A stretch of 53,609 nt of DNA from Thermoanaerobaculales bacterium (GTDB lineage Bacteria > Acidobacteriota > Thermoanaerobaculia > Thermoanaerobaculales > Sulfomarinibacteraceae), in the NCBI GenBank assembly GCA_021107705.1, contig JAIOSJ010000317.1, positions 1 to 53,609 on the forward strand. The letters run 5' to 3'. The position numbers and the translations under genes are program-made. The notes below the pieces were generated by a model, which saw only the letters and a list, made by a program, of their open reading frames with translations, was not told the origin of the DNA and ran no database searches. Position 1 is the first letter of the stretch; the number at the start of each line of letters is the position of its first letter. This document shows, piece by piece, positions 12,562-45,712 of this stretch.

Positions 12562-12590
12562 GCCATCCCCCAATTCCATCCTTACTCCAC

Positions 12591-13690: not shown

Positions 13691-13711
13691 GGTCTCTGTT
13701 CCCTCCCGTCC

Positions 13712-14311: not shown

Positions 14312-14315
14312 TTCC

Positions 14316-25860: not shown

Positions 25861-26985
25861 TCAAGAGGACGTGTTCACCGCCACGCAAACCCGGTCTTTC
25901 CCGGTTTCTTTCGCCTGGTACATCGCCTGATCAGCGGCCCGCATAAGGAGGTTCTTCTTCAGGTCGGTGGACCCCTGGCGGGCGAGATGGATCGGGTAGA
26001 CGGCGGCGCCGACCGACACCGTCAAGGCCGAACGGAGACTCACCGGCCCATCAGCCCACGAAAAGGTTCCGTGCAGAAAAGTGGCCCCACGAAGGGCGCG
26101 GCAGATGCCCTCCCCGACCTCGGCCGCAGCATCGACATCAAAGCCGGGCAAGATCACGACAAATTCATCGCCTCCATAGCGAGCGATGGTCGCTTCGGAC
26201 GCCGTCACGGTCTGCGACAAGAGGTAGGCGAACTCCTTCAAAACCTGAGAGCCGGCCAGGTGCCCCAGAGTATCGTTCACACCCTTGAAGTTGTCGAGGT
26301 CGAGAAAAAGCAGGGCAACTGTTCCTCCGGTAACATCGGCGCGCACCAGTTCCTCGGTGAGTCGATGATGGAAGAAGCGGTCGTTGTGGAGACCGGAGAG
26401 ATCATCACGCCGCGCCATCTCCCCAGCACGCCGCGCATCGAGGAGATTTTCGAGAAAAGCGGACGTGTAACTCCCGAAAACCTCCAGAATTCCAACGTCG
26501 ATCAACGAGTAATTCTCCTCTTTTCTGTTGATCAGCTCGAGAACCCCACACACCGTCTGCTCAATGCGAATGGGCACGGCAACGGCACCCGTCGTCTTGA
26601 AATTCAACGCGGTATCGAAACGACCGTCAAAGTGCGCGTCGTGGGCCGGGTCGGCCAGAAGGTATGGCTCGCCGGTACGGTAAACCTGACCGACGACACC
26701 TTGGTCGGAACACAGCTTCTGACCCAGGAGCGCCTCGGCGGCAGGCCCGAAAGACGCCAAAAAGAAAAGATCGGTCCCCCCCGTGGCATCCATACTCACC
26801 TGAGGTCGATCCATAAGAATAGACCCGGCCGCTGACGGCACAAAGGCGTTGGCCTTGCTCAGAATCTCGACCAGGAAGGGCCCAAGGTCTAGACGAGGCA
26901 GGGAAAAAGCCGTATACCTTCGCCTTTCCAGATGAGGTTCCAGCTTGTCATGGGGAAGAGTCTGCACAGACACGGGCTTATCCAT
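25861..26985 (-). CDS. GAF-GGDEF diguanylate cyclase
   Basis: GAF (GVVGQV..TGE, D.RFD, VPI, GVLELIN), then DDLSGLHN, DLDNFKGVNDTLGHLAGS, RYGGDEF and ADQAMYQAKETGK. Confidence 0.94.
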   Translation of the reverse strand: MDKPVSVQTLPHDKLEPHLERRRYTAFSLPRLDLGPFLVEILSKANAFVPSAAGSILMDRPQVSMDATGGTDLFFLASFGPAAEALLGQKLCSDQGVVGQVYRTGEPYLLADPAHDAHFDGRFDTALNFKTTGAVAVPIRIEQTVCGVLELINRKEENYSLIDVGILEVFGSYTSAFLENLLDARRAGEMARRDDLSGLHNDRFFHHRLTEELVRADVTGGTVALLFLDLDNFKGVNDTLGHLAGSQVLKEFAYLLSQTVTASEATIARYGGDEFVVILPGFDVDAAAEVGEGICRALRGATFLHGTFSWADGPVSLRSALTVSVGAAVYPIHLARQGSTDLKKNLLMRAADQAMYQAKETGKDRVCVAVNTSS

Positions 26986-26994
26986 TCAGCCATT

Positions 26995-28659
26995 CTACCG
27001 AAGTAATTGGCGAATGCGCTCCTCCAGATCGCCAACCGTGTCGGTGTGATCGGCCCGGCCCGGCGCGAACCGGACACCTTCCAGCCCTTTTCGAATCGAT
27101 ACCATCTCGGCTTCAACCTCTTGGCTGCGCTCCTCAACCGCCAGATCGAGCCACCATTGTTCCAGCGCGACCTGAAGTTGGCGCGCACGATCAGCCGGGG
27201 ACTGGCCGTGCCGACGGGGAGGTATCACCGCCGACCTGCGCCGAAAAACCAGCATCGCAACCAATCCGCCTCCCAGCAGACCAACAAGAAGAGCGCCGAA
27301 TACCAGAGCCCAAACAGGCCCGGCGCCTCCGCCGTTCAGAGAACGGCCGACAGCGGAAGACCCCGAATCATCAGCCGACGCCGAGCCCGGCATTTCATCA
27401 GGCAGGACCGTCGGTGTGGGGGTTGGAGGCGGTGGTTTGACTTCGAGGCTCAAGGGGCCAAGCGTTCGATAGCGATACTGCCCGGAGCCGGTATCAAACA
27501 CCGCCAACTCAACCGGTACCAGGGTCATTTCTCCCCACCGCCGGGGCACGACCGTCGTGCGCCAGATCCTCAAACCGTGGATTCCGCTCCCGTCCACCGT
27601 GACGCTGCTCTCTTCCTCGGGGGGATAAGTCGTACAGTCCTCACACGAAGGCCAAAGCGCCGGCGCCTTCACCAAAGGAAGATTGCCTCGACCCTCCAGA
27701 GTGATGCTGACCACCGTCGATGAGCCAAACTCAATCTGTTGAGGGGTCATGGAGACCGAGTAGGCCAGGTCTCCGACCGCTCCCGAAAAGCCCCGAGGAG
27801 GTGCAAGTCGAGGTGTGACCCGGGCCTTCAATTCCTCGGTCGATCTCTCGATCACCGTCGGCGGCACAAAAGCGGAACGACCTCGGAAGCCGATGCGCGC
27901 CCCAACCGCCGGAATGGTCAGGGTCTGGGCCTTCAGTGGTATCAAGGCAAAACGCGCGACCTGAAACCGGTTGAAGACCTCGCCTCCGACCTCAACCTGT
28001 TCGGCTTCGGCTTGATCCGGCATTTCAATCGGCTGAACCCACCATCCCGGATATTCGGGCTGTTTGACCCACTCGAAACCATTAATCAACCCGCCCGTGG
28101 TATCCAAAACTACCGACGCAATAACCGGTTGACCCTCGGCGATCTGCTTTCTGCTGAGGAAGTGGCGCAAGACCACCTTGGCGGTCTGCGCCGGACGACG
28201 AGAGCTTCCAAATATGTCGCCGAAGGGATCGGAAATTCCGAATGAAGTTCTCCGTCTCGGGCGCCGGACCTGAATCGTTCCGGGCACAACCGCGGCCGTC
28301 ACCACACCCCCGGACAGACTGTGCTCGCCCACCCTGACCGTAATCGGCCCCGCAGCCGCTTTGCCGACGCCCAGGGGGCGAAGAATCCAACTCAGACTCA
28401 ACGCCGAGGAGGAGCGACCATTCACGAAGCTGAACTGGGTTTCGCTCGATGGACCCTGGACCACCTCAAAGTTCACCATCTCACCCAGGTCGACGGTCGG
28501 CTTGGCGCCCCCAGGCTCAATCACCCGCACTGTCAGACGAGTGAGATCTTCCGTTCCCAATTTCGCCGGATCGAGACTGACCTCCAACGTCGGCACATCG
28601 CTTGCGGCAACGCCAACCGCCCAAGCCATGAAAGCGACCATCAGAACGAAGGGTCTCAC
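26995..28659 (-). CDS. BatD-family protein
   Basis: Signal peptide, QFSFVNG, FSGAVG, LEGRGNL and a C-terminal TM; last structural gene of the MoxR/VWA operon. Confidence 0.85.
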   Translation of the reverse strand: MRPFVLMVAFMAWAVGVAASDVPTLEVSLDPAKLGTEDLTRLTVRVIEPGGAKPTVDLGEMVNFEVVQGPSSETQFSFVNGRSSSALSLSWILRPLGVGKAAAGPITVRVGEHSLSGGVVTAAVVPGTIQVRRPRRRTSFGISDPFGDIFGSSRRPAQTAKVVLRHFLSRKQIAEGQPVIASVVLDTTGGLINGFEWVKQPEYPGWWVQPIEMPDQAEAEQVEVGGEVFNRFQVARFALIPLKAQTLTIPAVGARIGFRGRSAFVPPTVIERSTEELKARVTPRLAPPRGFSGAVGDLAYSVSMTPQQIEFGSSTVVSITLEGRGNLPLVKAPALWPSCEDCTTYPPEEESSVTVDGSGIHGLRIWRTTVVPRRWGEMTLVPVELAVFDTGSGQYRYRTLGPLSLEVKPPPPTPTPTVLPDEMPGSASADDSGSSAVGRSLNGGGAGPVWALVFGALLVGLLGGGLVAMLVFRRRSAVIPPRRHGQSPADRARQLQVALEQWWLDLAVEERSQEVEAEMVSIRKGLEGVRFAPGRADHTDTVGDLEERIRQLLR

Positions 28660-30446
28660 CAGTCCTTCTCCACGGTCCCCGTCTCGGGCGCCGGTGTGCG
28701 CATCGCCTCGCGCGCATCAGCCTCGGCCCGGTCCAACGCCTCGAAAAGACCCCCGTTGGGTTCGGGTGTCGGGGTCGGCGGGGGTTGTTGGGCCTGTCCA
28801 TCCGGCGATGGCGTGGGGGTCGGTTGGGGGCCGTTCTGCTGTTCTTCTTGCTCCTGTTGCTCCTCGTCCTCGTCTTCCTTCTCGTCCTGGTCCTTTTCCT
28901 GTTCCTGCTCCTGTTCTTCTTGTTCCTCCAACAGCCTGAGAGCCAGTTCGTAGTTGCGCTTGGTTCCCGGGTCGGAGGGGTCCGCCAATAGAGCCCTGCG
29001 TAGGGCCTGAACCGCCGCCTCTGCCTGTTGACCTGCCAGAGCCGCCGTACCGACGTTGTAGGCGGCGCCGGCAACCCCACCGCGTTCCGCGGCTTCGAGG
29101 ATCGGCCCAGCCATGTCCCCGGCGCCGGCGGCAGCCAGCGAGGTTCCGAGGTCGAAGAGACGCACAGGATCTTCAGGCGCCAGTATCGCCGCGCCGGCAA
29201 AGCTCTCGACCGATGCCTCGAGGTCCTCTGAGTGCCACTGGGAAACACCGCGGCGGGCCAACCGCCGACTCCCTCCCGGAATCAGGCGTTGCCACCAAGG
29301 GATCTTCAACTCGGGCGGAGGTTCGGCCGGCGCCCCAGGGGCCACTGAACCAGGCACGGCCGCAGGCGCCGGTGCGCCAGGGGCCGGCCCCGCGTGTTGC
29401 GCCATTGCAGGCGCCGTGAGACCAAAGACAATCACCCCGGCCGCCACAAGCACGGTGCGACGACGCCATGGAGACAGCAGAAAACCGAGCAAAAGGCACA
29501 CGGCGCTCAGACCCAAGAAAATCGGGAATCGCTCAATTCTGCGGGGTACCCGGCGGGTCTCCATCTCTCGCGTCCGAAGACGTTCAACCGCTTCGACGAG
29601 TTGCTGCTCTGCACCGACCGAATCCGCTATGATGACCTCCCCCTCGACAATCTCAGTCATCCCCCTCAGGGTTTCGGCTTCGGCATGCGTCACCACCGGT
29701 TGCCCGTCCTTGTCTCTCTTGTAATGCATCGCGCCGGAAGCGTCCACCTCCGGAATCGGCCCACCCTGCTCGGTCCCGACAACCACGCCCAACATGGACA
29801 CGCCGGCGGCCTTCAATGTCTCGGCGGCCGCCTGCGGATTCCCCTGGAGGTTTTCGCCGTCGGTGAAGAACACTGCAACCCGGCCATCGCCCTCCTCCGG
29901 CAGCAGTCTGAGAGCCGCCGTCACCGCCGCCTCGAGATTCGAGCCGGGCCGACCCACCATTCCCGGTTCGACGCCCTCAAGGAACGTGGCCGCCGCATGG
30001 ACATCCGTGGTCAGCGGCACCAGGGCATAGGCCTCACCCGAATAGACCACGACACCGATCCTGTTGCCGGCCAAACCGGGAAGGGACCGCCGCACGATCT
30101 GCAGGGCGGCGGCCAACCGATTCGGCCGGACGTCCGGGCAACGCATCGAGTCCGAGACATCAAGCGCAAATACAAGGTCACGGGTACGAACGGAGACTTC
30201 CGAGGGGAGTTCTCCCCACTGAGGCCGGGCCAGGGCCAGTACAAGCCAGAAAGCCGCCGCACTCCACATCAACAGACGCCACAGACCGGTGGAAGGCGTA
30301 CCACCCATCAGGCGATTCCAGACCGCCGGCGAGGCCAGCCGGCGCTGCTGATCAAGACGCCGCCGGTGGCGCAACAACACTGACAGACCGACAACGACCG
30401 GCACAAGGAGGAACCATAACCGAGCAGGCTCGGCAAAATTTACCAT
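28656..30446 (-). CDS. BatB-BatC-like fusion: VWA domain + TM + TPR + E/Q-rich tail
   Basis: ALARPQWG, LDVSDSM (MIDAS), PLTTD and TDGE; TPR AYNVG..NYELAL; poly-E/Q tract and terminal KDW. Confidence 0.88.
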   Translation of the reverse strand: MVNFAEPARLWFLLVPVVVGLSVLLRHRRRLDQQRRLASPAVWNRLMGGTPSTGLWRLLMWSAAAFWLVLALARPQWGELPSEVSVRTRDLVFALDVSDSMRCPDVRPNRLAAALQIVRRSLPGLAGNRIGVVVYSGEAYALVPLTTDVHAAATFLEGVEPGMVGRPGSNLEAAVTAALRLLPEEGDGRVAVFFTDGENLQGNPQAAAETLKAAGVSMLGVVVGTEQGGPIPEVDASGAMHYKRDKDGQPVVTHAEAETLRGMTEIVEGEVIIADSVGAEQQLVEAVERLRTREMETRRVPRRIERFPIFLGLSAVCLLLGFLLSPWRRRTVLVAAGVIVFGLTAPAMAQHAGPAPGAPAPAAVPGSVAPGAPAEPPPELKIPWWQRLIPGGSRRLARRGVSQWHSEDLEASVESFAGAAILAPEDPVRLFDLGTSLAAAGAGDMAGPILEAAERGGVAGAAYNVGTAALAGQQAEAAVQALRRALLADPSDPGTKRNYELALRLLEEQEEQEQEQEKDQDEKEDEDEEQQEQEEQQNGPQPTPTPSPDGQAQQPPPTPTPEPNGGLFEALDRAEADAREAMRTPAPETGTVEKDW

Positions 30447-31444
30447 GGTGTGCCTCCCGCCAAACTCTCGATCCCCGCCGCAGCCAGGAGCATGAAAAGG
30501 GCGACCAGCGCCCATGGTTCAAAACGCTCCCGGTAGCGAACCAATTTGGTTGATGTGAATTCAGTCGTCTCGAGAGCATCGATCTCTTCGAAGACCGCAC
30601 TCAGTGCCTTTCCGTCGCGCGCACGAAAGGAAGTCCCTCCGGTCCGCCGGGCAATCTCAGCCAGAAGTTCGGGGTTCGTTTCCACTTCGACTTCACGGAT
30701 CTCCCGTTTTTCTCTCCCCGTCCATGGGTCCCTGACGGTGACCGGCATCGGGACCTTGCCGCCTCGCCCCACCAGCACGGTGTGAACCGTCATTTCTTCA
30801 GACTGGGCGAGATCGGCCGCGGTCAGAGGGTCCAGCTGGCCCGAGTTGTTCGACCCGTCGGTGACCAGGACCACGACCTTCGAGTCAGCCTTGGACTTGC
30901 GCAGCCGGCTCACCGCAGTGCCAAGTCCCATTCCGATAGCCGTTCCGTCCGGAAGGGCGCCGATTTCAACATCACCGAGCAGGCGACCCGCAACTTCGTG
31001 ATCCAGAGTCAAGGGACATAGGGTGACGGCCGCTCCGGCGAAGACCACCAGGGCGATTCGATCGTGCGGACGCCCATCGAGAAAGGCACCGATCACATTC
31101 TTGGCCACCCCAAGGCGATCCGTCGGCCTGAAATCCAACGCGGCCATCGAACCGGACACATCCAGAACCACCGCCAAATCAACACCCTCGGCCCTCTCAA
31201 TATTGCGGGAGAGAACTTCCTGCGGCCGGGCGAGTGAGACGGCGAGGGGCACAAATGCCGCTGCGGCCAGAAAACCGGAGATCACCGTCGCACCGACCCG
31301 CAGGTCCAGTCGTCGGGGACCGGATCCTCCCGGCGCCACGGGGAACGGAAAACGCTGCCGACGCCGCCTCAGCCACCACAGTCCCGCCGCAGGAATCAAC
31401 AAGCTTGCGAGAAGCAAGAACTCGGGCACGGCGAGCCGCATCAT
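30440..31444 (-). CDS. BatA-like VWA domain protein
   Basis: LARPQ, LDVSGSMAALDF, DRIALVVF, CPLTLD, DGTAIG, TDGSNNSG and EIDALE. Confidence 0.92.
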   Translation of the reverse strand: MMRLAVPEFLLLASLLIPAAGLWWLRRRRQRFPFPVAPGGSGPRRLDLRVGATVISGFLAAAAFVPLAVSLARPQEVLSRNIERAEGVDLAVVLDVSGSMAALDFRPTDRLGVAKNVIGAFLDGRPHDRIALVVFAGAAVTLCPLTLDHEVAGRLLGDVEIGALPDGTAIGMGLGTAVSRLRKSKADSKVVVLVTDGSNNSGQLDPLTAADLAQSEEMTVHTVLVGRGGKVPMPVTVRDPWTGREKREIREVEVETNPELLAEIARRTGGTSFRARDGKALSAVFEEIDALETTEFTSTKLVRYRERFEPWALVALFMLLAAAGIESLAGGTPW

Positions 31445-32514
31445 GGTTTTCCCCCAGATTCCGGCTCGGGCATCAGGTGACGTTCAAGGTGACGTCCCAC
31501 ATCGAGCGTGGTCTCTCGGGCGGCAATCAACTCTGCGTCACCAACTCCGCGGCGCCCGAAACGAACCCCATCCGCAACCCCAGTCACACTCTGCAAACTT
31601 GCCTGGATCTCGGACGGCCAGTTCGACCTTCGGGCCAACAAGCGAAGCTCGTGCGAGGTCATTTCCGCCGCCGGCTCGCCGGTGCGTCGCTCGAGATACC
31701 GACGCACGCCCCCTGCCAGACGGTCACAGACCTCCGGCGCCGAAAGCAGGCCAACCCGCGCCCTGAGATCTTCGAGCAGCTGCTGCAATTCCTCGAACGG
31801 AGGCAATGCTCCGGCCTCCAGAACGTCGGCCCCAGCCCTCCGTCTGCGTCGCCACCACAAAGCGGCGACCGCAACCAGCGGGGCCAATAGAAGAAAGAGC
31901 GGCAGAACCCACTCCCACGGAAAACCGTGGACACCGACCGGGTCGTGCAAGGGCGCCGGCGCCCCATCGTCGTCGGCCGCCAGAACCGTCGCAACGGTGA
32001 TTGACGGTCCTTCGTTCGACAAAATTTCAAGAACCTCGCCCTCGTCGTCGCGGAGACCCGCAACAAGAATCGGTAATTCCATCGCGCCGATCTTCAGGGG
32101 TGCGAGCACAACCTCCCATGCCGGGGGTTCGGCGCCCGGCACTTCCCGCGGCGGGGTGATGATCGCCCACGAATCCTGGTCTTGCGTCTGGAGGCTCAGA
32201 TCTCCCCATAGAGAACCCTCACCGCCGCGTGCCTGAACCCGCACCGCGATCGGATCTCCGACCTCGAAAGTCTCTCCCGAGACCCTCAGTTCCAGGGCCG
32301 CGTCACTCGCCTCGCCGGCTTGGAGCACCCCGGCGCCAACAAGAAAAAATAACCACAAAAAGGCACAAAAAGGCACAAAAAGGAAGCCAATAAGATTGTT
32401 GTGGTTGCGTTGTAGCGCGACTGCCCGGCCCGCATTCTCGTACGCTGAATCTTGCAGACAGCTAAGCTGAGAGCCGATAGCTGATAGCTGAAAGCTGATA
32501 GCTTTACCTCGCAC
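31441..32514 (-). CDS. Membrane-anchored hypothetical protein of Bat operons (DUF4381-like); N-terminus contains tandem repeats
   Basis: Probable GTG start at 32514 after GGGAG, overlapping the DUF58 stop; Ig-like domain, TM, RRYLERR...AAEMTSHEL and ADGVRFG. Confidence 0.75.
   Translation of the reverse strand: MRGKAISFQLSAIGSQLSCLQDSAYENAGRAVALQRNHNNLIGFLFVPFCAFLWLFFLVGAGVLQAGEASDAALELRVSGETFEVGDPIAVRVQARGGEGSLWGDLSLQTQDQDSWAIITPPREVPGAEPPAWEVVLAPLKIGAMELPILVAGLRDDEGEVLEILSNEGPSITVATVLAADDDGAPAPLHDPVGVHGFPWEWVLPLFLLLAPLVAVAALWWRRRRRAGADVLEAGALPPFEELQQLLEDLRARVGLLSAPEVCDRLAGGVRRYLERRTGEPAAEMTSHELRLLARRSNWPSEIQASLQSVTGVADGVRFGRRGVGDAELIAARETTLDVGRHLERHLMPEPESGGKP
32354..32383. repeat. (CACAAAAAGG)x3 perfect decamer tandem repeat
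   Basis: Read directly from the sequence; encodes FVPFCAFLW on the minus strand. Confidence 0.9.
32465..32503. repeat. Heptamer tandem repeat (AGCTGAN, about 5.5 units)
   Basis: AGCTGAG AGCCGAT AGCTGAT AGCTGAA AGCTGAT AGCT; encodes AISFQLSAIGSQL on the minus strand. Confidence 0.9.
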
Positions 32515-33388
32515 GTCGCCGCTCCCGTCGCTCGAGAAGGGCCTGAATGGCCGGTAAATAGTCATCGTCGGTACGTAGATTCACGACATCGACACCGGGC
32601 ATTGCAACCCTGTCTCCACCCAGTCGGGTCCTTCCCACAGTCCATCGCCTCCCGGTCTCCGCATCGGCTACCGGCAGTGGGTCACTGTCGGCCCCGCGCT
32701 CGAGCAGAGCGTCACCCACCCTGACCACGACCACTTCGTGGCGACCCGCCAGGGCCGCCAGCGAACGCCGCGGCAGTTCGCAGGTGCGATCGACCAGAAG
32801 AATCACCACCCCGCGTCGGTGCAAGAGACGTCCAGCGGCGGCCACGGCGTCTTCAACGGCCGTGCCCCGCCCTGCGGGGGCCGCACCCAGAACCTCGCGC
32901 ACCACTCGCAGCCCATGGCGCCAGCCCGCCCGAGGAGGAATCAGAGACCGCACGCTGTCGTCGAAGAGTACTGCGCCGACTCTGTCCCGACGTGAAGCGG
33001 CGAGAGCAAACAGACTCGCGACCTCGGCAATGAGGTCATGCACCGTCATCACCTTCGAACCGAACCGCGTCGAGGCGGAGAGATCCACCAGCAGAAGAAC
33101 CGTCAGATCGCGCTCCTCGCGATAACGCTTCACGTGCAGTTGACCGGTTCGGGCCGTGACGTTCCAGGCGATCGTTCGAATGTCGTCGCCGGAGCGGTAT
33201 TCCCGCACCTCTTCGAATTCCAGACCCCGTCCCTTGAAAGCACTCTGGTAGTGGCCGGAAAGTCCCGACTCCATCGCACGTCTCGCGCGGATCTCGAGAT
33301 GACGGACCTGAGACCGCAGCTCCGAACCCGCTTGGTGAACCGGGTCAACCGGGACTGGTCGGCCCAACCACCGGGCCAGTGAACTCAC
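32504..33388 (-). CDS. DUF58 domain protein
   Basis: SAFKGRGLEFEEVREY..GDDIRTI.WNVTAR, K.YREER and DLSAS. Confidence 0.93.
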   Translation of the reverse strand: MSSLARWLGRPVPVDPVHQAGSELRSQVRHLEIRARRAMESGLSGHYQSAFKGRGLEFEEVREYRSGDDIRTIAWNVTARTGQLHVKRYREERDLTVLLLVDLSASTRFGSKVMTVHDLIAEVASLFALAASRRDRVGAVLFDDSVRSLIPPRAGWRHGLRVVREVLGAAPAGRGTAVEDAVAAAGRLLHRRGVVILLVDRTCELPRRSLAALAGRHEVVVVRVGDALLERGADSDPLPVADAETGRRWTVGRTRLGGDRVAMPGVDVVNLRTDDDYLPAIQALLERRERRRAR

Positions 33389-34368
33389 GGAACCTCCACC
33401 GCCAGCAGCAGACGTTCGATCACATCCTCGGAATCCACGCCTTCGGCCTCCGCCTCGTAGGTCAGAACCATCCGATGACGCAAGACCGACGGAGCCAGTT
33501 CCTTGACATCTTCCGGAGTCACGAAGGCGCGGCCGCGCACCAGGGCCAGAGCTCGGCTCCCTACGGCAAGCGCAATCGAGGCTCGGGGCGAAGCGCCGAA
33601 AGCGATCAGCGGGACAAGATCACCGAGGCCGACCTCGGCCGGCCGCCGCGTGGCGGAAACGAGGTTGACGATGTAGGAACGAATCCGTTCATCCAGATAG
33701 ACCTCGCGCGCCACGGCTTCGAGTTCCCCCAACTCCTCGAGAGTCGTCACCCGCTGCGGAGTCGGAAAGGCCTTCCCGAGGTGATACTCCAAAACAGTGC
33801 GCTCGTCCTCAGGGGCCGGATAGTCAACCAGAACTTTGAAAAGGAAACGATCCAGCTGTGCCTCGGGAAGGACGTACGTACCCTCCTGCTCGATCGGATT
33901 CTGCGTCGCCAGGACGACGAAGGGGTCAGGCAATTTGAAAGTCTCGCCCCCGATCGTGACCTGACGTTCTTCCATCGCCTCCAACAGAGCCGACTGAACC
34001 TTTGCGGGGGCCCGGTTGATCTCGTCGGCAAGAACCAGATTCGCAAAGACCGGTCCTCGGTGGGGAACGAACTCCGAGGTCTTGGGGTCAAAAATCTGAG
34101 TTCCCGTCACATCCGCCGGCAGCAGGTCCGGGGTGAATTGCAGACGTTGAAAATCACCCCCGACAACCCCGGCGAGCGCGCGCACCGTCAGAGTCTTTGC
34201 CAACCCCGGCACACCTTCGAGCAGAACATGACCGCGACACAAGAGAGCCACCAATACCGATTCCACGAGGTGGTCTTGGCCGACCACAACTTCCGATACC
34301 GCACGATGAATCTCACCGAGTCGTGCTGCCGCCCTGTCTACCTGCCGATCTTCCAGTCGTTGATCCAT
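33385..34368 (-). CDS. MoxR-family AAA+ ATPase
   Basis: GHVLLEGVPGLAKT, QFTPDLLPAD, LADEINRAPAKVQSALLEAM, ATQNPIEQEGTY.LPEAQLDRF and GASPRA. Confidence 0.97.
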   Translation of the reverse strand: MDQRLEDRQVDRAAARLGEIHRAVSEVVVGQDHLVESVLVALLCRGHVLLEGVPGLAKTLTVRALAGVVGGDFQRLQFTPDLLPADVTGTQIFDPKTSEFVPHRGPVFANLVLADEINRAPAKVQSALLEAMEERQVTIGGETFKLPDPFVVLATQNPIEQEGTYVLPEAQLDRFLFKVLVDYPAPEDERTVLEYHLGKAFPTPQRVTTLEELGELEAVAREVYLDERIRSYIVNLVSATRRPAEVGLGDLVPLIAFGASPRASIALAVGSRALALVRGRAFVTPEDVKELAPSVLRHRMVLTYEAEAEGVDSEDVIERLLLAVEVP

Positions 34369-34424: not shown

Positions 34425-34574
34425 ACAAATTCGCCTGGTTTTGCCCTTGATCCACGCCGATTCGGCCTGCCGCGCCTTTTCGGCACAACCAAGATCACCC
34501 TTTCATTTCGAAGCTCTGAGGGTTACCGCCACCAAAGACGCCAAAACTAACCCGAACCTAAATTGAGCGATTCT

Positions 34575-34975
34575 CAGCGGCGATCTGCACCAGGCTCGGC
34601 CGCGAGAAGAACGGTTGATCCGGGCCGGCGTCGAACAGCACCGCTGGCTGCCAATAGGTGACCGAGTCAACAGTGACGGCGCCGATCCTGTCGCCGTAGG
34701 CCGTAGCGGAGATCGGCCCGGGTTTGCCGATCTCCATTCGGTAGACCTTGCCCGCTGTCGTGCCCCAGTAAAGGGTATCGACGAAGCCGTCAATGTCGGC
34801 GTCGCTTCCAGACAAGGTGGTGGGAACCTGGCCGTCTACTTCGCTCTTGAAGAGAATGTGGCCGGTTTCGACATCCACGCCGTAGATATAGTAATAACCC
34901 TCGTCGTTGAGCGGCTCACGCAAGGAGCCATCGACACGATACTCACCGCTGTATTCGGTGCCGTCGACGGTGATT
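34575..34975 (-). pseudogene. Internal fragment of a PilY1-like paralogue (beta-propeller with Ca-loop)
   Basis: YIYGVDVETGHILFK..DADIDGFVDTLYWGTTAGKVYRM..LFDAGPDQPFFSRPSL aligns by eye with FLYGVDVATGEILLK..DLDFDGFAEKLYLATTAGKIYRL..LFAAEGDQPFFMRPTL of the PilY1 at 45712-49650; no credible start or signal peptide. Confidence 0.85.
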
Positions 34976-35121
34976 TTTTGGCCATTAGCATAATTGGAAT
35001 TGCGACCTGAGGGGCGCGGAGTCGTACTCGACAGTCCGTCGAGCACACCGAAGGGAGCAAACGCAACAGATTTCTGTACATCTCCGGTCGTAGTAGAAGA
35101 TTGGTGAGAAATGCTGGCTAG
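34965..35121. mobile_element. MITE-like family A, copy 3 (left end lost)
   Basis: GGGGCG..AGTCG..TCCGTCGAG..AACAGA..CGTAGTAGAAGATTGGTGAGAAATGCTGGCTAG colinear with copies 1 and 2. Confidence 0.75.
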
Positions 35122-35299
35122 TTCCCGTCCGAAAACGGCCATTTTTTCGCAATCTCGGCGTCAGGCTCTGCGGACTTCCTTGTGCGACGTACACGAGTAC
35201 GACTCCGCGGAAGTTCTTGCCTTCCTTGATCTTGCGGAAAATTCCTCGTTTTCGCCTCGGGAACTGCGCTGTCCCCATCGGGAGTTTTCGGATGGGAAC
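35121..35299. mobile_element. MITE-like element, family B
   Basis: 16-bp terminal inverted repeats GTTCCCGTCCGAAAAC / GTTTTCGGATGGGAAC (15/16) with an internal CGTAC-N5-GTACG hairpin; non-coding. Confidence 0.8.
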
Positions 35300-35314: not shown

Positions 35315-36391
35315 TCAGTCCGTCTCCCCTTCGACCTCTTCTACCAAGTCCTTGAACATTTCCTTGTTGATGGACTTGTCGTAGGCGGCTCGCGCGTCAA
35401 CGAAGCCGTCTTCGTAGAGCCTACGAATCGCCGTATCCATCTCCATCATGCCTTCCTTGACGCCGATCTGAATTGCCGAGACGATCTGCGAGGTCTTAGC
35501 CTCGCGAATCATCGCTCCGATCGACGACGAGCAGAAGAGGAGTTCGACCGCCGCAATCTGGCCGCCCCCGATCTTCGGCAGGAGCTGCTGGGCTATCACC
35601 GCTTGTAAGCAGTCGGCGAGCAGGAACCGTACGCCATCCTGCTCCTCCGCCGGGAAGACATTGACCATGCGGTCGATAGCCTTCACCGCGTTGTTGGTGT
35701 GCAGGGTTCCGTAGACAAGCGTCCCCTTGCCCGCTGCATCGAGCGCCATCGAGACCGTCTCCAGGTCGCGCATTTCACCCACCAGGATGACGTCGGGGTC
35801 CTCGCGGGCCGCAGCCTTGAGGGCTTCGGCGAAAGATTCAACGTGGGGGCCGATCTCCCGCTGATGAATCACGCAGTTTCGATGAGGATGGATGAACTCG
35901 ATCGGGTCCTCGAGCGTGATGATGTGATATTTGCGGCTGCTGTTGATGAAGTCGATGATAGCAGCGAGCGTCGTCGACTTGCCCGAGCCGGTCGGCCCCG
36001 TGACGAGGACGAGGCCGCTTTCGATTTCGGCAAGCTTGCGCACCTGCTGCGGTAACACCAGCTGTTCAATCGACATGATCCTCGAAGGGATGATCCGCAT
36101 CACTGCGCCGGACCCGCGATGCTGGCGAAAGAGGTTGACGCGAAAGCGTGCGACATCCCCCAGCTGGTAGGCGAAGTCCACATCGCCTTCTCGTCTAAAA
36201 TCCTCCCACCGTGCAGGAGGGGTAATGACCTTGATCATCTCCTCCCACTCCACCTCCTTGATCGTCCGATAGTGGACGCGTTCAATCTCCCCGGACACAC
36301 GAAGCATCGGCGGCCGCCCGACCGTGAGATGGAAGTCGGAGGCGCCACGATCGTTCATGAGTCGAAGGAAGCGGTCAATCTTGTTCATCAA
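35315..36391 (-). CDS. PilT/PilU-family pilus retraction ATPase
   Basis: ASDFHL, RFRVN, GPTGSGKST, TLEDPIE, QREIG, EDPDVILVGEMRD and GTLHT. Confidence 0.94.
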   Translation of the reverse strand: MMNKIDRFLRLMNDRGASDFHLTVGRPPMLRVSGEIERVHYRTIKEVEWEEMIKVITPPARWEDFRREGDVDFAYQLGDVARFRVNLFRQHRGSGAVMRIIPSRIMSIEQLVLPQQVRKLAEIESGLVLVTGPTGSGKSTTLAAIIDFINSSRKYHIITLEDPIEFIHPHRNCVIHQREIGPHVESFAEALKAAAREDPDVILVGEMRDLETVSMALDAAGKGTLVYGTLHTNNAVKAIDRMVNVFPAEEQDGVRFLLADCLQAVIAQQLLPKIGGGQIAAVELLFCSSSIGAMIREAKTSQIVSAIQIGVKEGMMEMDTAIRRLYEDGFVDARAAYDKSINKEMFKDLVEEVEGETD

Positions 36392-38895
36392 TCGACACCC
36401 CCCGGCGCACCACCGTCAAAGAAGCCAGCCGGTAGCTGATCAGCGAACTCCTTCTTCGAGATCGCAGACCTGTAGGCGACCTCGAGGGTGATCAGGTCGC
36501 GCTCGAGCAGCTCCCGCAAAGCCGCATCGTGGGTGCGCATACCAATGGTCTGGCCGATCTGCATGACTGACGGAATCTGGATGGTCTTGCCCTCTCGAAT
36601 GAGATTCACCACCGACGGTGTGTTCTTGAGGATTTCGAAACACGCGACCTGCCCGGTGATACCCTTGGCTGGCAATAGATGCTGGGCGACCGCGAACCTC
36701 AGGGTCTCGGCAAGGGAGGTTCGGATGGCGGGTCTGTCCTTCGCCGAGAAGCTCGAGATGATTCGGTCGACCACCCGGGAGGCGTTGGTCGCGTTGAGCG
36801 TGCCCAGGACGACATGACCGGTCTCGGCCGCAGTCAAGGCGAGAGAGATCGATTCGGTATCGCGCAACTCACCGATGACAATGACGTCGGGATCCTCTCT
36901 CAGCGCCGCCCGCAAAGCGCGAGCATAGGATTCGGAGTCCCTTCCGACCTCTCGCTGATTGATCAGCGAACTCTTGAAAGGGTGCACGAACTCGACCGGG
37001 TCCTCAAGAGAAATGATGTGGGCGAAACGGCTCTCGTTGAACAGATTGACGAGGGCGGCGAGGGTCGTCGACTTGCCACTTCCCGACGGACCACAGACGA
37101 GGATCAGACCCTGGTGGTAGCTGAGGACCTCCTTGAGGATTTCCGGCAATCCGAACTCCTCGAAGGTGGGAGGCTGATCCGGAATGACCCGGAAGGCGGC
37201 GTTGAGCCCACACCGGTCGAGGAAAACGTTGGCGCGATACCGACCACTGCCCGGGATGTAATGGCAAAGGTCGAGCTGATTGCGATCCTGCAGCCTCTGC
37301 TTCTGCTCGTCAGAGAGCACCTCGATGAGGAGAGCCTGGATCTGCTCAGCCGTCAGTGGCTCCGAGTTGACCCGTACGATCCTACCAGCCACCCTGACGA
37401 TCGGCGCCTGGCCCACCGTGAGATGAAGGTCCGATGCCTTCTGTTTTCGGGTCGCCCGCAGCATCGCATTGACCTTGGGCTCACCGACCTCGGCGGAGTC
37501 CTTCATGATTCTCGCTTGGATCTCGGCCTCGCCCTCGACTACCGCGGATTTCCGCGCCCTGATCTCTTTGAGCACCGAAAGGGCGCGCAACTGCACGTTT
37601 TGGTTCGGGTCGGAGTTCGCGACCTGTTTCAGCGCTTCGGCGATCTGCGGGTGGTCAAAGTGTTTGAGGGCCATCAAGACCTCAATGCGCACCTCGACCT
37701 CCTGACTCTTCAACAGCTGAGCCAGGGCCGGCAGAGCCCTGTCGTCCCCAATCTGGCCGAGGGCATCGATCGCCGCCCATCGGGCCTCCGGGTCACCAAG
37801 CAGCTCGGTCAATGCCTGCCCGGCTCGCGGATCGCCGAGCAGACCGAGGGTTTCGGCGGCGGTGATACGAAGCCACCAGTCGTCGTCCTTGAGCAGCGGG
37901 ACGATCGCCTCTACCGCCCCCGGGTGGTTGTTGGAGCCGATCAGCAGAAGAGCGGCGAACCGGACCTCCATATCCGGATCCTTGAGAAGCTCAAGGACTG
38001 AATCCACCATGTCGGTACCCAAGGCCCTCATGTTCTCAAGCGCCCGGTCGCGGGTCCACCCGGCCAGACTTTTGGAAAACTCCAAGTACCTGCGGATAAG
38101 CCGCGGCTGGTCGGGCATGCCGAGTAGAATCGACACGACCGCTGACCGCGTCGTGGCGTTACCGGACGCCATCAAGGGCAGAATGTGTTCTGCGAAGTCC
38201 GGCCCTTTGCCCTTCGCGACCTCGACGATCGCGGCGATGATCGCCTCTTGAGTCTCTTGCCGAACCCTGGAGAGGTTGGCAACCAACAAATCGATGTTGG
38301 GCTCGGCCGCGCACTGGACGATGACCCTCAGGGCCCTGTCCCGTACCTCACTGTCCTCGTGCGAGACGAGGAGTTTCCAGCGGTTGAGTGAACTTTCGGA
38401 AATCTCAAACTCAGCCAGGCGATCAAGATAACGGAGACGCGACCCGAGGTCACCCACCGAGGCCAATTTCCAAAACAACCGCTCAAGAGCCGGTGCTGGG
38501 GGACAGCTGAGCACAAACTGGTGAGCGGTGGTCCGCTGCTTGAGATCGTTCGACTCCGCGAGCCGGAGAAGGCTGCTCTCCATACCCGGGATTCGCAGAG
38601 AGAACAGCACCAATGCCGCCGCTCGGATCGCCGGATCACGTTGACCGCGGCTTTGAGCGAGAAAGAGATCGATGGTCTCTGGCGTGCGAAACGACGTGAG
38701 CAATCGGCCACAGGCCTCGCGCAAGATCCGATCCGGTCGAAAGGCCATCCACACGATGTCCGCAGGCTTCAAAGTGTCGGGGGCCGCGGAGATGATTTCG
38801 AGCAGCTCGTCCCGCTCCTGGCTGTCCGCAAAGCTGCCCCCGGAAAGTATCTTGAGCGCTTCCTTGACGGTGAGGTTCTCAAATGATGGCTTCAC
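36388..38895 (-). CDS. HEAT/PBS-lyase repeat-PilT ATPase fusion
   Basis: About 465 aa of HEAT-like repeats (LLKDPDMEVR, LLKDDDWWLRITAAETLG, AIDALGQIGD) fused to a PilT domain (ASDLHL, GPSGSGKST, EDPVE, EDPDVIVIGELRD). Confidence 0.92.
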   Translation of the reverse strand: MKPSFENLTVKEALKILSGGSFADSQERDELLEIISAAPDTLKPADIVWMAFRPDRILREACGRLLTSFRTPETIDLFLAQSRGQRDPAIRAAALVLFSLRIPGMESSLLRLAESNDLKQRTTAHQFVLSCPPAPALERLFWKLASVGDLGSRLRYLDRLAEFEISESSLNRWKLLVSHEDSEVRDRALRVIVQCAAEPNIDLLVANLSRVRQETQEAIIAAIVEVAKGKGPDFAEHILPLMASGNATTRSAVVSILLGMPDQPRLIRRYLEFSKSLAGWTRDRALENMRALGTDMVDSVLELLKDPDMEVRFAALLLIGSNNHPGAVEAIVPLLKDDDWWLRITAAETLGLLGDPRAGQALTELLGDPEARWAAIDALGQIGDDRALPALAQLLKSQEVEVRIEVLMALKHFDHPQIAEALKQVANSDPNQNVQLRALSVLKEIRARKSAVVEGEAEIQARIMKDSAEVGEPKVNAMLRATRKQKASDLHLTVGQAPIVRVAGRIVRVNSEPLTAEQIQALLIEVLSDEQKQRLQDRNQLDLCHYIPGSGRYRANVFLDRCGLNAAFRVIPDQPPTFEEFGLPEILKEVLSYHQGLILVCGPSGSGKSTTLAALVNLFNESRFAHIISLEDPVEFVHPFKSSLINQREVGRDSESYARALRAALREDPDVIVIGELRDTESISLALTAAETGHVVLGTLNATNASRVVDRIISSFSAKDRPAIRTSLAETLRFAVAQHLLPAKGITGQVACFEILKNTPSVVNLIREGKTIQIPSVMQIGQTIGMRTHDAALRELLERDLITLEVAYRSAISKKEFADQLPAGFFDGGAPGGVD

Positions 38896-38972
38896 GACGT
38901 GAGCATACCTTCACCGCTTCCGAACGGTCAAGATTCGAAGCCGGGACTCGGATTTTGGGGTAGGAGGGACAG

Positions 38973-39300
38973 ATGTACCACATTAAAGGCAAAGTGACGC
39001 TCCAAGCGCACGTTGACATTCCTGCGGGCACGTCCGAAGAAGAGTATGCCCGGAGGGGATTTTTCGGGCGTACCAGCCATCTGTACCGGAGTGAACCTCC
39101 GGGTACGGGCCCCACTCAAGTTAAGGTGCAACATCAGGGCCGGATCTCGACGATCACCTACCCGTTCAACCCGATCAATACCGTCGGCTGGAAGGGTGAT
39201 CTCACGGTGTGGCAACTCAACATCCGCGACATTCGGCCGATCTCTTCCGAACGCTACCACCTGCCGCCGACAGCCCACATCACGTTTTTGATGCAGAATG
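38973..39300 (+). pseudogene. Homogentisate 1,2-dioxygenase remnant with an internal deletion and C-terminal truncation
   Basis: Strong RBS; N-terminus (..EEE..RRGFFG..SHLY...PP) is joined directly to the mid-protein block YPFNP..VGWKGDL..W.LNIRDIRP..S.RYHLPPTAH.TF; the Fe-binding C-terminus is absent. Confidence 0.75.
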
Positions 39301-39439
39301 CGGCGCCCAATAGGGTATTCCACCCGAGGGGTGCGGATTGTACTTGATAGTTCGCAGGAAAGTGCGCATCGCCCGAGAGGGCGATCACGTCAAAGCTGTG
39401 GGGCCGCGAAGGGGCCAGCATTGGTTGGAGAGCATGCCG

Positions 39440-39510: not shown

Positions 39511-39546
39511 GGTTTGCCCTGGCGAAGGCAGGGCTACAATGTATTG

Positions 39547-41454
39547 ATGCCGAAAAAACGCATCGGCCGTTACGAGATTCTCGACACCCTGGGCAAGGGC
39601 GCCATGGGAGTTGTCTATCTAGCCCGTGACCCCATGATTGATCGCAGGGTAGCTCTGAAGACCCTCCGGCTGGATGTCGACGCCGAGGTGGCCGACGAGT
39701 TTCGCGAGCGCTTCTTGCGTGAGGCAAAGGCGGCAGGGCGCCTGAACCACCCAGGAATTGTCACCGTCCATGATGTCGGCGAAGATCCAGAGACGGGCCT
39801 CGTATATATCGCGATGGAGTACGTGAAGGGCCGAGATCTCAAACAGGTGCTTGCCTCTGAAGAACGTCTCCGTCCTTCAGAGGCAGCCCGTATCGTGGCG
39901 GAGGTGGCGTTGGCTCTGGAATACGCCCATGGGATGGGCGTCATCCATCGTGACATCAAACCCGCCAACATTATCCTCACGGCTGACGGATTCCCCAAAG
40001 TCATGGACTTCGGCGTGGCTCGTCTTGAATCGTCCAATCTCACGGTTGAGGGACAGTTCATCGGGACCCCGAACTTCATGTCACCCGAGCAGATTACCGG
40101 AAAAACAGTTGACGGCCGATCGGATCTTTTCTCCCTTGGGGTTGTGCTTTTCAATCTTCTCACCGGCAGACGTCCCTTCGTCGGTGCGAACATGCATGAG
40201 ATAACCCTCAAGATTGCTCAGGAACCGTGCCCCATCCCATCGACGATGGTGGCTGGACTGGCGCCTGCGTTCAATCCAATCCTGTTGAAATGTCTGGAAA
40301 AAGACCCCGAGCAACGCTTTCAATCCGGCACCGACATCGCGCGGGTCCTAGCGGCCCTGTCACGATCCCTTTCGCCACGATCCGAAGGGGACTCCGGCCG
40401 AACCGGGGTTGGTCACACTGACCTCGAAGGCCGGATCGCGGCGGTTTCCAAGGTTTCTCGAACGAGTTCTCCTCGCACTGCAGCCATCGCAAGACCGAAG
40501 AAAACAACACTGTCGGACCGACTTCGTAGCCTGCCCCTGCCTGAGTTTGTTCACTGGCAGGTGAACTCGAGTCGGATCTGGCCGATCATCGGCGGTTGTC
40601 TATTTTTGGGGCTGGCACCGATTCTCATCCTCGCCGCCATGGTCGATCATGGTCCCTGGCCCTCTCCTTCCGACGCAGCGATGCACGGTTTCCATGAGAC
40701 CGCCCGTTCCTACCGCCGTGCCATTCATTCCCTGGAACAGGATGATCTTCTCGCCGCCGAAAAATGCTGCTTGCGGGCGCTTCACCAGTCACCGGCCTCT
40801 CCCGGAGGACGAGCTTTGATGGCGAGGATCCGCGCCGCCCTGGATTCCGAGAAAAATATTCTCGCGACGCGAGACCGGATCGAGAAACTGGTAATGGAAG
40901 GACGTGAGTTCTACCGCCAAGGAGACTACAAAAGAGCGATCACCCTTTTTGAAGAAGTTATGGATCTCGGACCCGGGGATGAACTGGCGACCAGTTATCT
41001 CGAATTGGCCAATGAACGACTTCGCGCAATCCCGAAACAAACACCGGCCCGCACGACGAGAAGAGTGACGAAGACAACGCCGGAGCGAAGGACTCCGATC
41101 AAGGCTCAACCGACTCCGGGCCTCGTCCGAATCACCCTGCTGTTCAACTCGCCCATCAACTCGGGAAAATTCGTGGTCACAATCGACGGAGAACCGCTGA
41201 CGGAGATTCCCTTCGATTTCACGCGCAAGAATTTCCTGAAGATCAAGAGAAAGGGCACCGGTACGGTGAAACGAGCTTTGACCGTCCCAAGCGGACGCCG
41301 AACTATCGGCATAGAATTCCTCTCGCCGGACCTTGGTAAACCGGTTTCGGCCCAATTCACCGAGCAATTACTCGCAGGCAGCCAATGGTCGTTGCGAGTT
41401 GACCAACCGTCGGCAGAAGCCACCCCTTCCTTTTTCTTTGTGAAATCCAGGTAG
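39547..41454 (+). CDS. Membrane-anchored Hanks-type Ser/Thr protein kinase with extracytoplasmic TPR and beta-domain
   Basis: GKGAMGVVY, VALK, HRDIKPAN, DFG and GTPNFMSPE; TM IWPIIGG..LAAMV; TPR-like helices. Confidence 0.94.
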   Translation: MPKKRIGRYEILDTLGKGAMGVVYLARDPMIDRRVALKTLRLDVDAEVADEFRERFLREAKAAGRLNHPGIVTVHDVGEDPETGLVYIAMEYVKGRDLKQVLASEERLRPSEAARIVAEVALALEYAHGMGVIHRDIKPANIILTADGFPKVMDFGVARLESSNLTVEGQFIGTPNFMSPEQITGKTVDGRSDLFSLGVVLFNLLTGRRPFVGANMHEITLKIAQEPCPIPSTMVAGLAPAFNPILLKCLEKDPEQRFQSGTDIARVLAALSRSLSPRSEGDSGRTGVGHTDLEGRIAAVSKVSRTSSPRTAAIARPKKTTLSDRLRSLPLPEFVHWQVNSSRIWPIIGGCLFLGLAPILILAAMVDHGPWPSPSDAAMHGFHETARSYRRAIHSLEQDDLLAAEKCCLRALHQSPASPGGRALMARIRAALDSEKNILATRDRIEKLVMEGREFYRQGDYKRAITLFEEVMDLGPGDELATSYLELANERLRAIPKQTPARTTRRVTKTTPERRTPIKAQPTPGLVRITLLFNSPINSGKFVVTIDGEPLTEIPFDFTRKNFLKIKRKGTGTVKRALTVPSGRRTIGIEFLSPDLGKPVSAQFTEQLLAGSQWSLRVDQPSAEATPSFFFVKSR

Positions 41455-44949: not shown

Positions 44950-45712
44950 CTTCGGCCTGATCCTCACCCTCGCTCGCGGCGCTCTCCTCGCTTTCTGGAG
45001 CGGCAGTCTCCCGCATGACGGTCGCCTGGCCGGACAACACAACGTTGGTCGCCTCTCCGTCGACCGAAATGACCAGTGAGAAGGAGTGTGCGGCGCCCGG
45101 TTGCAGAGTCTTCGAGATGCCAACCGTGCCTTCGCCGAGGTTCTCGCCTTCAATATCTTCCGCGCGGGCCGCGATTACGACTCCGCTCAGGTCGACGACA
45201 CCATCGTTGACCACCTGCCCGGTTACCGTCACCTGATCATCAGAGACAACCCGGTTCACGTTGGTGATGCGCAGCGCCCCATCACCATCGATCACCTGCT
45301 CGGCTTCATCACCCTCGGCGGCTTCTTCTTCGACCTCGGTCACGCGGTCGTGGCGAATGTGCGCGACATCGTCATCGGTGATACTCACCACAGCGGCGGA
45401 CTCGGACGCCGGGGCAATCGCCGAGCCGAAAAAACCGCTCGTCAGCCCCGCGTCTGCGCTATCGTGCGTGGCGGCCGGCGCCTCCTCCGCAAGCAGCCCC
45501 GATGCGGCGAGGTTGACGTCGGCAGCCTCGTACTGTTGCATACGACCGTTGGAAAACTTCACGATCACCACGCCATCCCGCACAACGGCACTTTCGACGA
45601 GCAGGGATGATCCGTCCAAAAGGATCAGGTTCTGTTCGTCCGCGGCCGGGGCTGCCACAACCCAGACAACGACAATTACAAGCATCGACAGGAGCACTCG
45701 TCGGTTGAACAT
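44939..45712 (-). CDS. Secreted acidic protein with a C-terminal FxLYD-like Ig domain
   Basis: Signal peptide (APA-A), ITDDDV motif, VTGQVVNDG..LQPG..SFS. Confidence 0.7.
   Translation of the reverse strand: MFNRRVLLSMLVIVVVWVVAAPAADEQNLILLDGSSLLVESAVVRDGVVIVKFSNGRMQQYEAADVNLAASGLLAEEAPAATHDSADAGLTSGFFGSAIAPASESAAVVSITDDDVAHIRHDRVTEVEEEAAEGDEAEQVIDGDGALRITNVNRVVSDDQVTVTGQVVNDGVVDLSGVVIAARAEDIEGENLGEGTVGISKTLQPGAAHSFSLVISVDGEATNVVLSGQATVMRETAAPESEESAASEGEDQAEDGA

Follow-up and report, generated by a model that had tools for sequence, protein, structure and literature searches.

PilT motors are among the strongest molecular motors known. The ways in which bacteria assign their many PilT paralogues to separate tasks and targets, and make them work together, are still being worked out; even the coordination of PilT with PilU was modelled only in 2025-2026. 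In the PilB/GspE-type ATPases, N-terminal modules (MshEN, N1E) bind machine components or c-di-GMP, and HEAT-type solenoids are typically protein-binding scaffolds. Here we describe a pair of PilT-family genes from a Thermoanaerobaculales bacterium (draft genome of 4.3 Mb, 94.8% complete), located on a stretch of 53,609 nucleotides (contig C37, hereafter the window). The first gene (A) encodes a PilT ATPase preceded by a long HEAT-repeat solenoid, and the second (B) encodes a compact PilT.

In the pilT-pilU tandem, PilU is a PilT-dependent second retraction motor, and the motors form stacked rings (10.1101/2025.10.30.685630; PMC13584747). A and B are likewise two adjacent PilT-family genes, probably acting together, but the likeness is one of working only: they fall outside the presumed PilU clade of our tree, and the extension is carried by the first gene as an N-terminal solenoid, not as a C-terminal tail. 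The closest published case, compared here by the paper's description only, is MXAN_6705/MXAN_6706 of M. xanthus, two adjacent PilT paralogues conserved across a lineage, the first with a longer N-terminus; deletion of MXAN_6706 results in a partial S-motility defect (PMC13584747). The N-terminus of MXAN_6705 is predicted to be intrinsically disordered (PMC13584747), whereas the arm of A is confidently folded, with a mean predicted local distance difference test score (pLDDT) of 92.

The HEAT-armed PilT and its partner PilT form a real unit, which is widespread in Acidobacteriota and undescribed in the full-text literature searched, where no account of a HEAT-PilT architecture was found (the initial annotation of the window had allowed that it might already be characterised as an ordinary PilT). 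The module is common in one class of this phylum, which is abundant in soils and sediments. With about even confidence, we propose that A and B together make up an accessory motor of two subunits for the type IVa pilus, in which B would be the engine and A a catalytically weakened, scaffold-bearing partner.

The HEAT-PilT fusion and its compact partner

The two genes and their parts are as follows (aa, amino acids or residue positions).

36388..38895, minus strand: gene A, HEAT-solenoid and PilT fusion, 835 aa, GTG start (open reading frame and translation, Pfam and NCBIfam matches)
37552..38868, minus strand: solenoid arm of A, aa 10-448, 28 helices, ~14 HEAT-type repeats (AlphaFold2 models)
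37552-38043, minus strand: part of the arm with canonical PBS/alphaRep-like HEAT repeats, aa 285-448
37477..37551, minus strand: linker of A, aa 449-473, the least conserved stretch (block conservation 0.40), with one short helix
36442..37476, minus strand: PilT core of A, aa 474-818 (TIGR01420, Foldseek, VIA-align)
36386..36390, minus strand: A/B junction TGATG, A stop and B start overlapping by one base (sequence)
35315..36388, minus strand: gene B, compact PilT paralogue, 357 aa, ATG at 36388, stop at 35315-35317 (TIGR01420)

The initial annotation placed about 465 aa of HEAT/PBS-like repeats ahead of a complete PilT domain in A, and this is borne out by Pfam, NCBIfam and the AlphaFold2 models. 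The Pfam matches HEAT_2 (PF13646, 124 bits, cut-off 27.7), HEAT (PF02985, 55 bits, cut-off 23.5) and HEAT_PBS (PF03130, 49.1 bits, cut-off 20.9) all exceed their gathering cut-offs, and the arm has the helical-hairpin repeat fold of a HEAT or PBS-lyase-type alpha-solenoid. Modelled alone, it is an all-helical solenoid (mean pLDDT 92, predicted template modelling score 0.75). The whole protein, modelled with a 49-sequence family alignment, has a mean pLDDT of 85, with values of 68-80 around aa 450-470, where the linker helix (aa 456-464) is predicted with lower confidence.

The structural matches of the arm are generic HEAT/ARM solenoids only. The best VIA-align match is an alphaRep fusion, 7p0h_A (Z 18.0, root-mean-square deviation (rmsd) 3.3 over 196 residues, aa 253-465); E. 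coli YibA and CpcE/F are matched with Z of 14.4 and 13.3, where, according to the tool's own note, Z ~13 is common between helical repeats. The A subunit of PP2A (PR65) is matched by Foldseek with an E value of about 2e-8, and alphaRep proteins in the PDB match by sequence over aa 295-435. Residues 1-284 are family-specific and less conserved (block conservation), and an Atlas structure search with aa 1-290 returned generic HEAT look-alikes and the family of protein A only. The arm thus shares the repeat fold and has a size comparable with that of HEAT scaffolds (alphaRep/PBS-lyase-type proteins, YibA, the PP2A A subunit), but this likeness is generic to solenoids, the first ~280 residues are specific to the family, and none of those proteins is fused to an ATPase. 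The solenoid may serve as a docking arm for a partner. A complex prediction of the arm (aa 1-470) with B scored 0.27 (mark 0.32), a value that counts neither for nor against binding.

Residues 475-816 of A match the PilT/PilU model TIGR01420 with 411.0 bits over profile positions 2-343 of 343, and B matches it with 421.8 bits over positions 2-341 (cut-off 319.1 for both); the Pfam domain T2SSE spans aa 473-742 of A. The PilB model TIGR02538 gives 113.7 bits for A against a cut-off of 675.65, which assigns its core to the PilT subfamily. The core shows the two-domain PilT fold (VIA-align, 2ewv_A, Z 32.4, rmsd 3.0, 336 residues; Foldseek, 6ojx_A, E 6.9e-26, TMt 0.89, and 3jvv_C, TMt 0.90), and the sequence match to 3jvu has an E value of 1.2e-93. 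The core of A and the whole of B are full-length matches to the described PilT proteins (P. aeruginosa 3JVU/3JVV, Geobacter PilT4 6OJX, Aquifex 2EWV) and have the Walker A, Asp box and Walker B in common with them. They differ from these in that A adds a folded N-terminal solenoid of ~465 aa and is without the gamma-phosphate His and the Walker-A Thr, and B is without the TGH element. B also has the compact build of PilT and PilU, with no extra domains, whereas A has 473 residues ahead of its core. As in the PilB/GspE-type extension ATPases with MshEN and N1E, a superfamily core is combined in A with an extra N-terminal module, but the core belongs to the PilT subfamily and the module is an unrelated HEAT solenoid.

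The two genes were first noted as overlapping in an ATGA; the overlap stands, but its form is TGATG. Since the stop of A and the start of B have one base in common, the junction suggests translational coupling of the two genes. In relatives, the junctions are mostly four-base (ATGA or GTGA) or one-base (TGATG) overlaps or gaps of a few bases (judged by eye). The pairing with a second PilT, for which a check of the gene neighbourhood had been proposed, is conserved family-wide: B lies directly 3' of A in 24 of 26 loci (two of them, L016 and L117, being one contig) and in 19 of 20 further loci, that is, in 43 of 46. The three exceptions are two genomes of one genus (G083; G617, locus L146) and one short contig (L014). 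In G083 a B homologue, 67% identical, is found elsewhere in the genome (contig C20), unlinked to A.

It had also been considered that the HEAT part might be a separate gene in relatives, in which case the fusion would be an artefact of assembly or gene calling, with pilT and a HEAT-repeat gene wrongly run together. Among 5.8 billion proteins, a search restricted by length gave 2009 matches; the best 120 of these were inspected and are 799-882 aa long, cover 93-100% of the query, all contain HEAT and T2SSE, and are 50-77% identical to A (100% for the window's own protein). The organisms named for these 120 are Vicinamibacteria, Thermoanaerobaculia or simply 'bacterium'. In a phylum-wide sample of 401 genomes, 20 have the arm (E <= 1e-20), in every case within an open frame of 823-947 aa. 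Of 401 genomes sampled from the class of the window's organism, 181 have it, in 58 of 133 genera; families f1, f4, f5 and f6 have it often, and it was not found in the sampled genomes of families f2 (0/34), f10 (0/38), f11 (0/13) and f12 (0/12). These tallies take in unpublished genomes (G024 in both samples, G466 and G541 in the class sample).

No stand-alone arm was found among the matches searched: just three short proteins (319, 375 and 254 aa) match aa 1-290, one of them labelled partial by its source and one located on a 920-base contig. Among 1.84 billion representatives, the single-stretch matches over the whole arm are ~827-845 aa long and the shorter ones cover part of the arm; the multi-stretch matches, which are many, are unrelated HEAT-repeat proteins. 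One database protein, P0080 (882 aa), consists of the arm and most of the core of A, an inserted stretch, and a B-like C-terminus; it arose either by a recombination or deletion that involved the two neighbouring paralogues or through an error of assembly. As this chimera demonstrates, the two genes are subject to errors or deletions of this kind. With an uninterrupted frame of ~830 aa in hundreds of independent assemblies, free of internal stops, we reject the artefact explanation, to which we give practically no probability.

Opposite residue loss in A and B

The catalytic motifs of A and the altered His-box region of B are located as follows.

37066-37092, minus strand: Walker A of A, GPSGSGKST
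36988-37005, minus strand: Asp box of A, EDPVEF
36859-36894, minus strand: Walker B of A, DPDVIVIGELRD
36781..36822, minus strand: His box of A, TGHVVLGTLNATNA, with the TGH element kept and the second histidine replaced by Asn701 (codon 36793-36795)
35687..35737, minus strand: His-box region of B, AAGKGTLVYGTLHTNNA, with KGT instead of TGH (35720-35728) and the second histidine, H230, retained (35699-35701)

Both proteins of the window have the Walker A Lys, the Asp box, and a Walker B with the catalytic Glu, as in PilT and PilU; in B, these motifs are canonical (Walker A GPTGSGKST) by motif counts. Neither protein has both His-box histidines (H222 and H229). Asn701 of A aligns with H229 of P. 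aeruginosa PilT and H230 of Geobacter PilT, the residue referred to here as the gamma-phosphate His. Residues were counted in 49 members of the A family, in 25 B orthologues with 19 further pairs, and in 27 other PilT/PilU sequences, in all of which (27/27) the TGH element, the Walker-A Thr, the gamma-phosphate His and the catalytic Glu are each invariant.

TGH element: in A, T, G and H in 49/49; in B, first His absent in 25/25 and in 19/19 further pairs
Thr of TGH: in B, K in 12, T in 10 and R in 3 of 25
Walker-A Thr: in A, S or A in 46/49; in B, kept in 25/25
Gamma-phosphate His: in A, N in 35, H in 12, S in 1 and D in 1 of 49; in B, kept in 25/25
Catalytic Glu: in A, Asp in 12/49 (Glu in the A of the window); in B, kept in 25/25

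The second His of B is likewise present in all 19 further pairs. In addition to the TGH element, the Walker A Lys, the Asp box and both Arg residues of GRYR (R552, R554) are invariant in A. The gamma-phosphate His has been lost in A at least twice independently, in a large clade with N, S or D and, as Ser, in genus g277, and this second loss indicates that A can do without the residue.

The adjacent packing unit supplies the Thr of TGH in PilT, and this Thr is in contact with the gamma-phosphate His and the Walker-A Thr when the interface is closed (10.1101/672212). In P. aeruginosa PilT, the H229A substitution abolishes twitching and lowers the ATPase activity, and H222A lowers twitching (PMC10187167). 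Read against these contacts, the counts indirectly suggest that the part that A would give to its neighbouring subunit is under strict selection and its own site drifts, with the reverse in B. Such complementary constraint is what an obligate A-B assembly would produce, most simply as an alternating ring, and the decay of catalytic residues on one side and trans-acting residues on the other leads to a concrete prediction that can be tested: A and B would be obligate partners, possibly in one mixed ring.

The mixed A3B3 ring, in which A and B alternate, is a tentative proposal that we consider more doubtful than the partnership itself. In such a ring, the B-centred sites would be complete, combining the Walker-A Thr, catalytic Glu and gamma-phosphate His of B with the invariant TGH Thr from the neighbouring A. 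The A-centred sites would be non-catalytic, with Ser or Ala, with Asn, Ser or Asp, and sometimes with Asp for the catalytic Glu, combined with the degenerate Lys/Arg-Gly-X of B. If this is true, the secretion superfamily would include an ATPase organised like F1-ATPase, in which three sites would work and three would regulate, and the three HEAT arms would serve for docking or sensing. To our knowledge, and with no search aimed at this point, no natural mixed ring has been described among PilT-like ATPases.

The change of the A His to Asn and that of the B Thr to Lys or Arg coincide in 41 of 44 pairs. A strict coupling of the two residues, perfect in the first 25 pairs, was dropped after three exceptions were met among the 19 further ones; because of these exceptions, and because the main switch is one event on the tree, the coupling is not used here as proof, and only the contrast in constraint between the two families is retained.

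The same residue losses bear on a different explanation, in which A would be a pseudo-motor that acts as a brake or regulator, on the platform or bound to B or PilT, and would not drive retraction itself, with the arm sensing a signal and B working as an independent retraction ATPase. The repeated loss of the gamma-phosphate His in most A proteins, the replacement of the catalytic Glu by Asp in 12 of 49 and of the Walker-A Thr by Ser or Ala in 46 of 49 are in agreement with it, as is the loss of twitching in the PilT H229A mutant (PMC10187167). However, the invariant Walker A Lys, Asp box, GRYR Arg and TGH argue that nucleotide binding and ring assembly by A are under selection, and the His is retained in 12 of 49 A proteins. 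An independent B would also leave unexplained its strict linkage with A, the co-diversification of the two, and the lost TGH. We therefore regard a pseudo-motor as improbable.

The phylogeny sets both proteins apart from the other PilT sequences included. When 84 PilT domains are placed in a maximum-likelihood tree (IQ-TREE quick search, LG+G4), the cores of A group in a single clade (27 rows, support 99 in the Shimodaira-Hasegawa-like approximate likelihood ratio test, SH-aLRT) and the B proteins another (25 rows, SH-aLRT 100), and their sub-clades mirror each other. Both are apart from the betaproteobacterial PilT clade and from the presumed PilU clade, which includes neither A nor B. The latter clade (SH-aLRT 99) brings together the downstream genes of five tandem pairs from betaproteobacteria and that of a pair from Candidatus Binatia, and we presume it to be PilU from the gene order in Pseudomonas-type pilT-pilU operons. 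The same genome encodes a PilT beside PilB (contig C427) and a PilU-like protein (C263, L001) that joins the presumed PilU clade with a support of 84.

A third non-canonical PilT of this genome (L003:185-1963, minus strand, G000 contig C219) has a canonical core with an intact His box, a C-terminal tail of ~130 aa that resembles a coiled coil, and a long branch in the tree. Its shape recalls M. xanthus PilU, for which a long C-terminus has been described.

The proposed motor and its likely target

We infer from the conserved pairing and the complementary residue pattern that A and B associate physically, as the two subunits of a single PilT-family motor, a dedicated module that is passed on as a whole. 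B, with its own nucleotide site fully canonical, would be the catalytic engine. A would contribute a PilT paralogue with an eroding site and the rigid N-terminal HEAT solenoid of ~14 repeats. In a hexameric assembly, the N-terminal face would bear six arms. In published models, the N-terminal face of PilT is oriented toward PilU and away from PilC (PMC13584747; 10.1101/2025.10.30.685630), so that arms on this face would extend into the cytoplasm without necessarily colliding with the machine. They could form a scaffold on the cytoplasmic side for recruiting, positioning or regulating the motor. The arm is a handle for finding the docking target. The most likely site of action would be the type IVa pilus machine of the cell, where the pair would supplement the canonical PilB and PilT as a retraction motor that is accessory or used conditionally.

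The grounds for linking the pair to type IV pili are its family membership and the pilus genes scattered near it in some lineages. In the window, the latter are pilMNO(P)Q, PilY1 and PilW; elsewhere, PilW is found near the pair in L121, and PilD and PilX in L125. In G083, where B is unlinked, A is followed on contig C9 by pilC (T2SSF) and pilB (MshEN and T2SSE) on the same strand (L115:5969-11534, minus strand).

In another explanation, the pair is derived from PilT but would no longer serve the type IVa pilus, and the HEAT arm would direct it to a substrate elsewhere, for example a filament system of another kind, a complex for polarity or signalling, or a protein or nucleic acid to be remodelled. 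The neighbourhoods are heterogeneous: in a Pfam scan of neighbouring open reading frames (ORFs) from 22 loci, mostly housekeeping genes were found, with scattered pilus genes. The scan covered 111 of 133 candidate ORFs, omitting 18 ORFs of L123, L124 and L126 (close kin of L121 and L125) and four long distal ORFs. A chemosensory cluster adjoins B in L112 and PAS histidine kinases do so in L121 and L125; in addition, the genome already encodes a canonical PilT and a PilU-like protein, and the His boxes of A and B both deviate from the form present in 27/27 other PilT/PilU. On the other side, A and B score well above the curated PilT/PilU cut-off across the full profile, and both retain an N-[LM]-I-R-[ED] stretch at what we take to be the position of the AIRNLIRE motif of PilT. 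A is also in line with pilC and pilB in G083, and no alternative machinery is conserved beside the pair. We consider a target other than the pilus unlikely, although somewhat less so than the pseudo-motor.

Several points weigh against an accessory pilus motor with B as engine. Outside close kin, no pilus gene consistently adjoins the pair, and the neighbours are mostly housekeeping genes. The pair may serve something else, because a PilB-PilT cluster, a PilU-like gene and one more PilT variant are already present in the genome. The link between the A His and the B Thr is essentially one event on the tree, and 3 of the 44 pairs depart from it (S with T in two, H with A in one). The Asn at the His position of A might still support hydrolysis, the Walker A, the Asp box and, in the window, the catalytic Glu of A being intact.

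Neighbouring genes and other features of the window

Apart from B, no conserved neighbour was found: in BLAST searches with 15 window neighbours, none was detected beside the pair in the 26 loci, and in an all-against-all clustering of neighbours the largest cluster covers 5 of 26 loci, all from two related families. The features of the window outside the pair that concern pilus assembly and control are listed below.

10105-15368, minus strand: pilM, pilN, pilO, a 175-aa ORF in the pilP position, and pilQ
38896..38972, strand not assigned: divergent intergenic region 5' of A, where the operon promoter is presumably located (sequence)
39514-41454, plus strand: Hanks-type Ser/Thr kinase with a TPR region, divergent, 620 bp upstream of A

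The distance of about 20 kb first noted between the pair and pilMNOPQ is confirmed as 19.9 kb, measured from the end of B. The 175-aa ORF between pilO and pilQ is without a Pfam match.

The divergent kinase raises the question of whether the module is kinase-controlled, with this protein as its regulator. HEAT-kinase proteins do occur among the Atlas structural neighbours of aa 1-290 (TM 0.55-0.59), but such values are generic between solenoids. A Pkinase domain was found in 0 of 111 neighbour ORFs from the 22 loci, and a BLAST search with the window kinase found nothing beside the pair in the 26 loci. Its absence from the loci of relatives argues that the kinase is only a local neighbour of the pair, and its control of the module is very unlikely. 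It was rejected as a partner together with the MoxR-DUF58-VWA-BatD genes and a 194-aa PilY1-like ORF (both described below), since none of these recurs beside the pair elsewhere.

Upstream of A, a promoter-like site is found at 38931-38902 on the minus strand, one against 1.4 expected by chance, and nothing in a promoter and terminator scan of the locus exceeds chance. No RNA run is listed for this stretch, which is contained, in whole or in part, in four DNA runs from two studies. Two opposite-strand overlapping ORFs lie at 38928-39347, neither with a Pfam match; the 124-aa plus-strand ORF (38973-39347), with a GGAGG box ahead of it, is probably the real gene of the two.

Some of the neighbours deserve mention in their own right. 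The 194-aa ORF at 34558-35142 (minus strand), 172 nucleotides 3' of B, has a weak match to the PilY1 beta-propeller (E 5.2e-5, under the cut-off). Just downstream, at 26995-34368 (minus strand), lies a Bat/aerotolerance-like operon with genes for a MoxR AAA+ protein, a DUF58 protein, two VWA proteins and BatD, and with one unassigned ORF. At 45712-51328 (minus strand), 7-12 kb on the other side of the pair, are a 1312-aa PilY1-like protein and a PilW-like minor-pilin gene; the small ORFs between and after them are probably minor pilins.

In other genomes, the chemosensory cluster of L112, which belongs to the same family as the window's organism, lies at L112:4505-9545 (plus strand) and comprises a methyl-accepting chemotaxis protein, a CheA-like protein, a CheW-receiver protein and CheB; it is convergent with the pair and ends 8 bases from the end of B. 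The A-B pair of an uncultured bacterium (L015) has, 1.4 kb upstream, an open frame of 745 aa (L015:3577-5814, plus strand) in which T2SSE occurs twice, as two PilT domains in tandem. In the window, a GAF-GGDEF diguanylate cyclase (25861-26985, minus strand) and a RelA/SpoT enzyme (16086-18287, minus strand) are both encoded between the pilus assembly genes and the pair.

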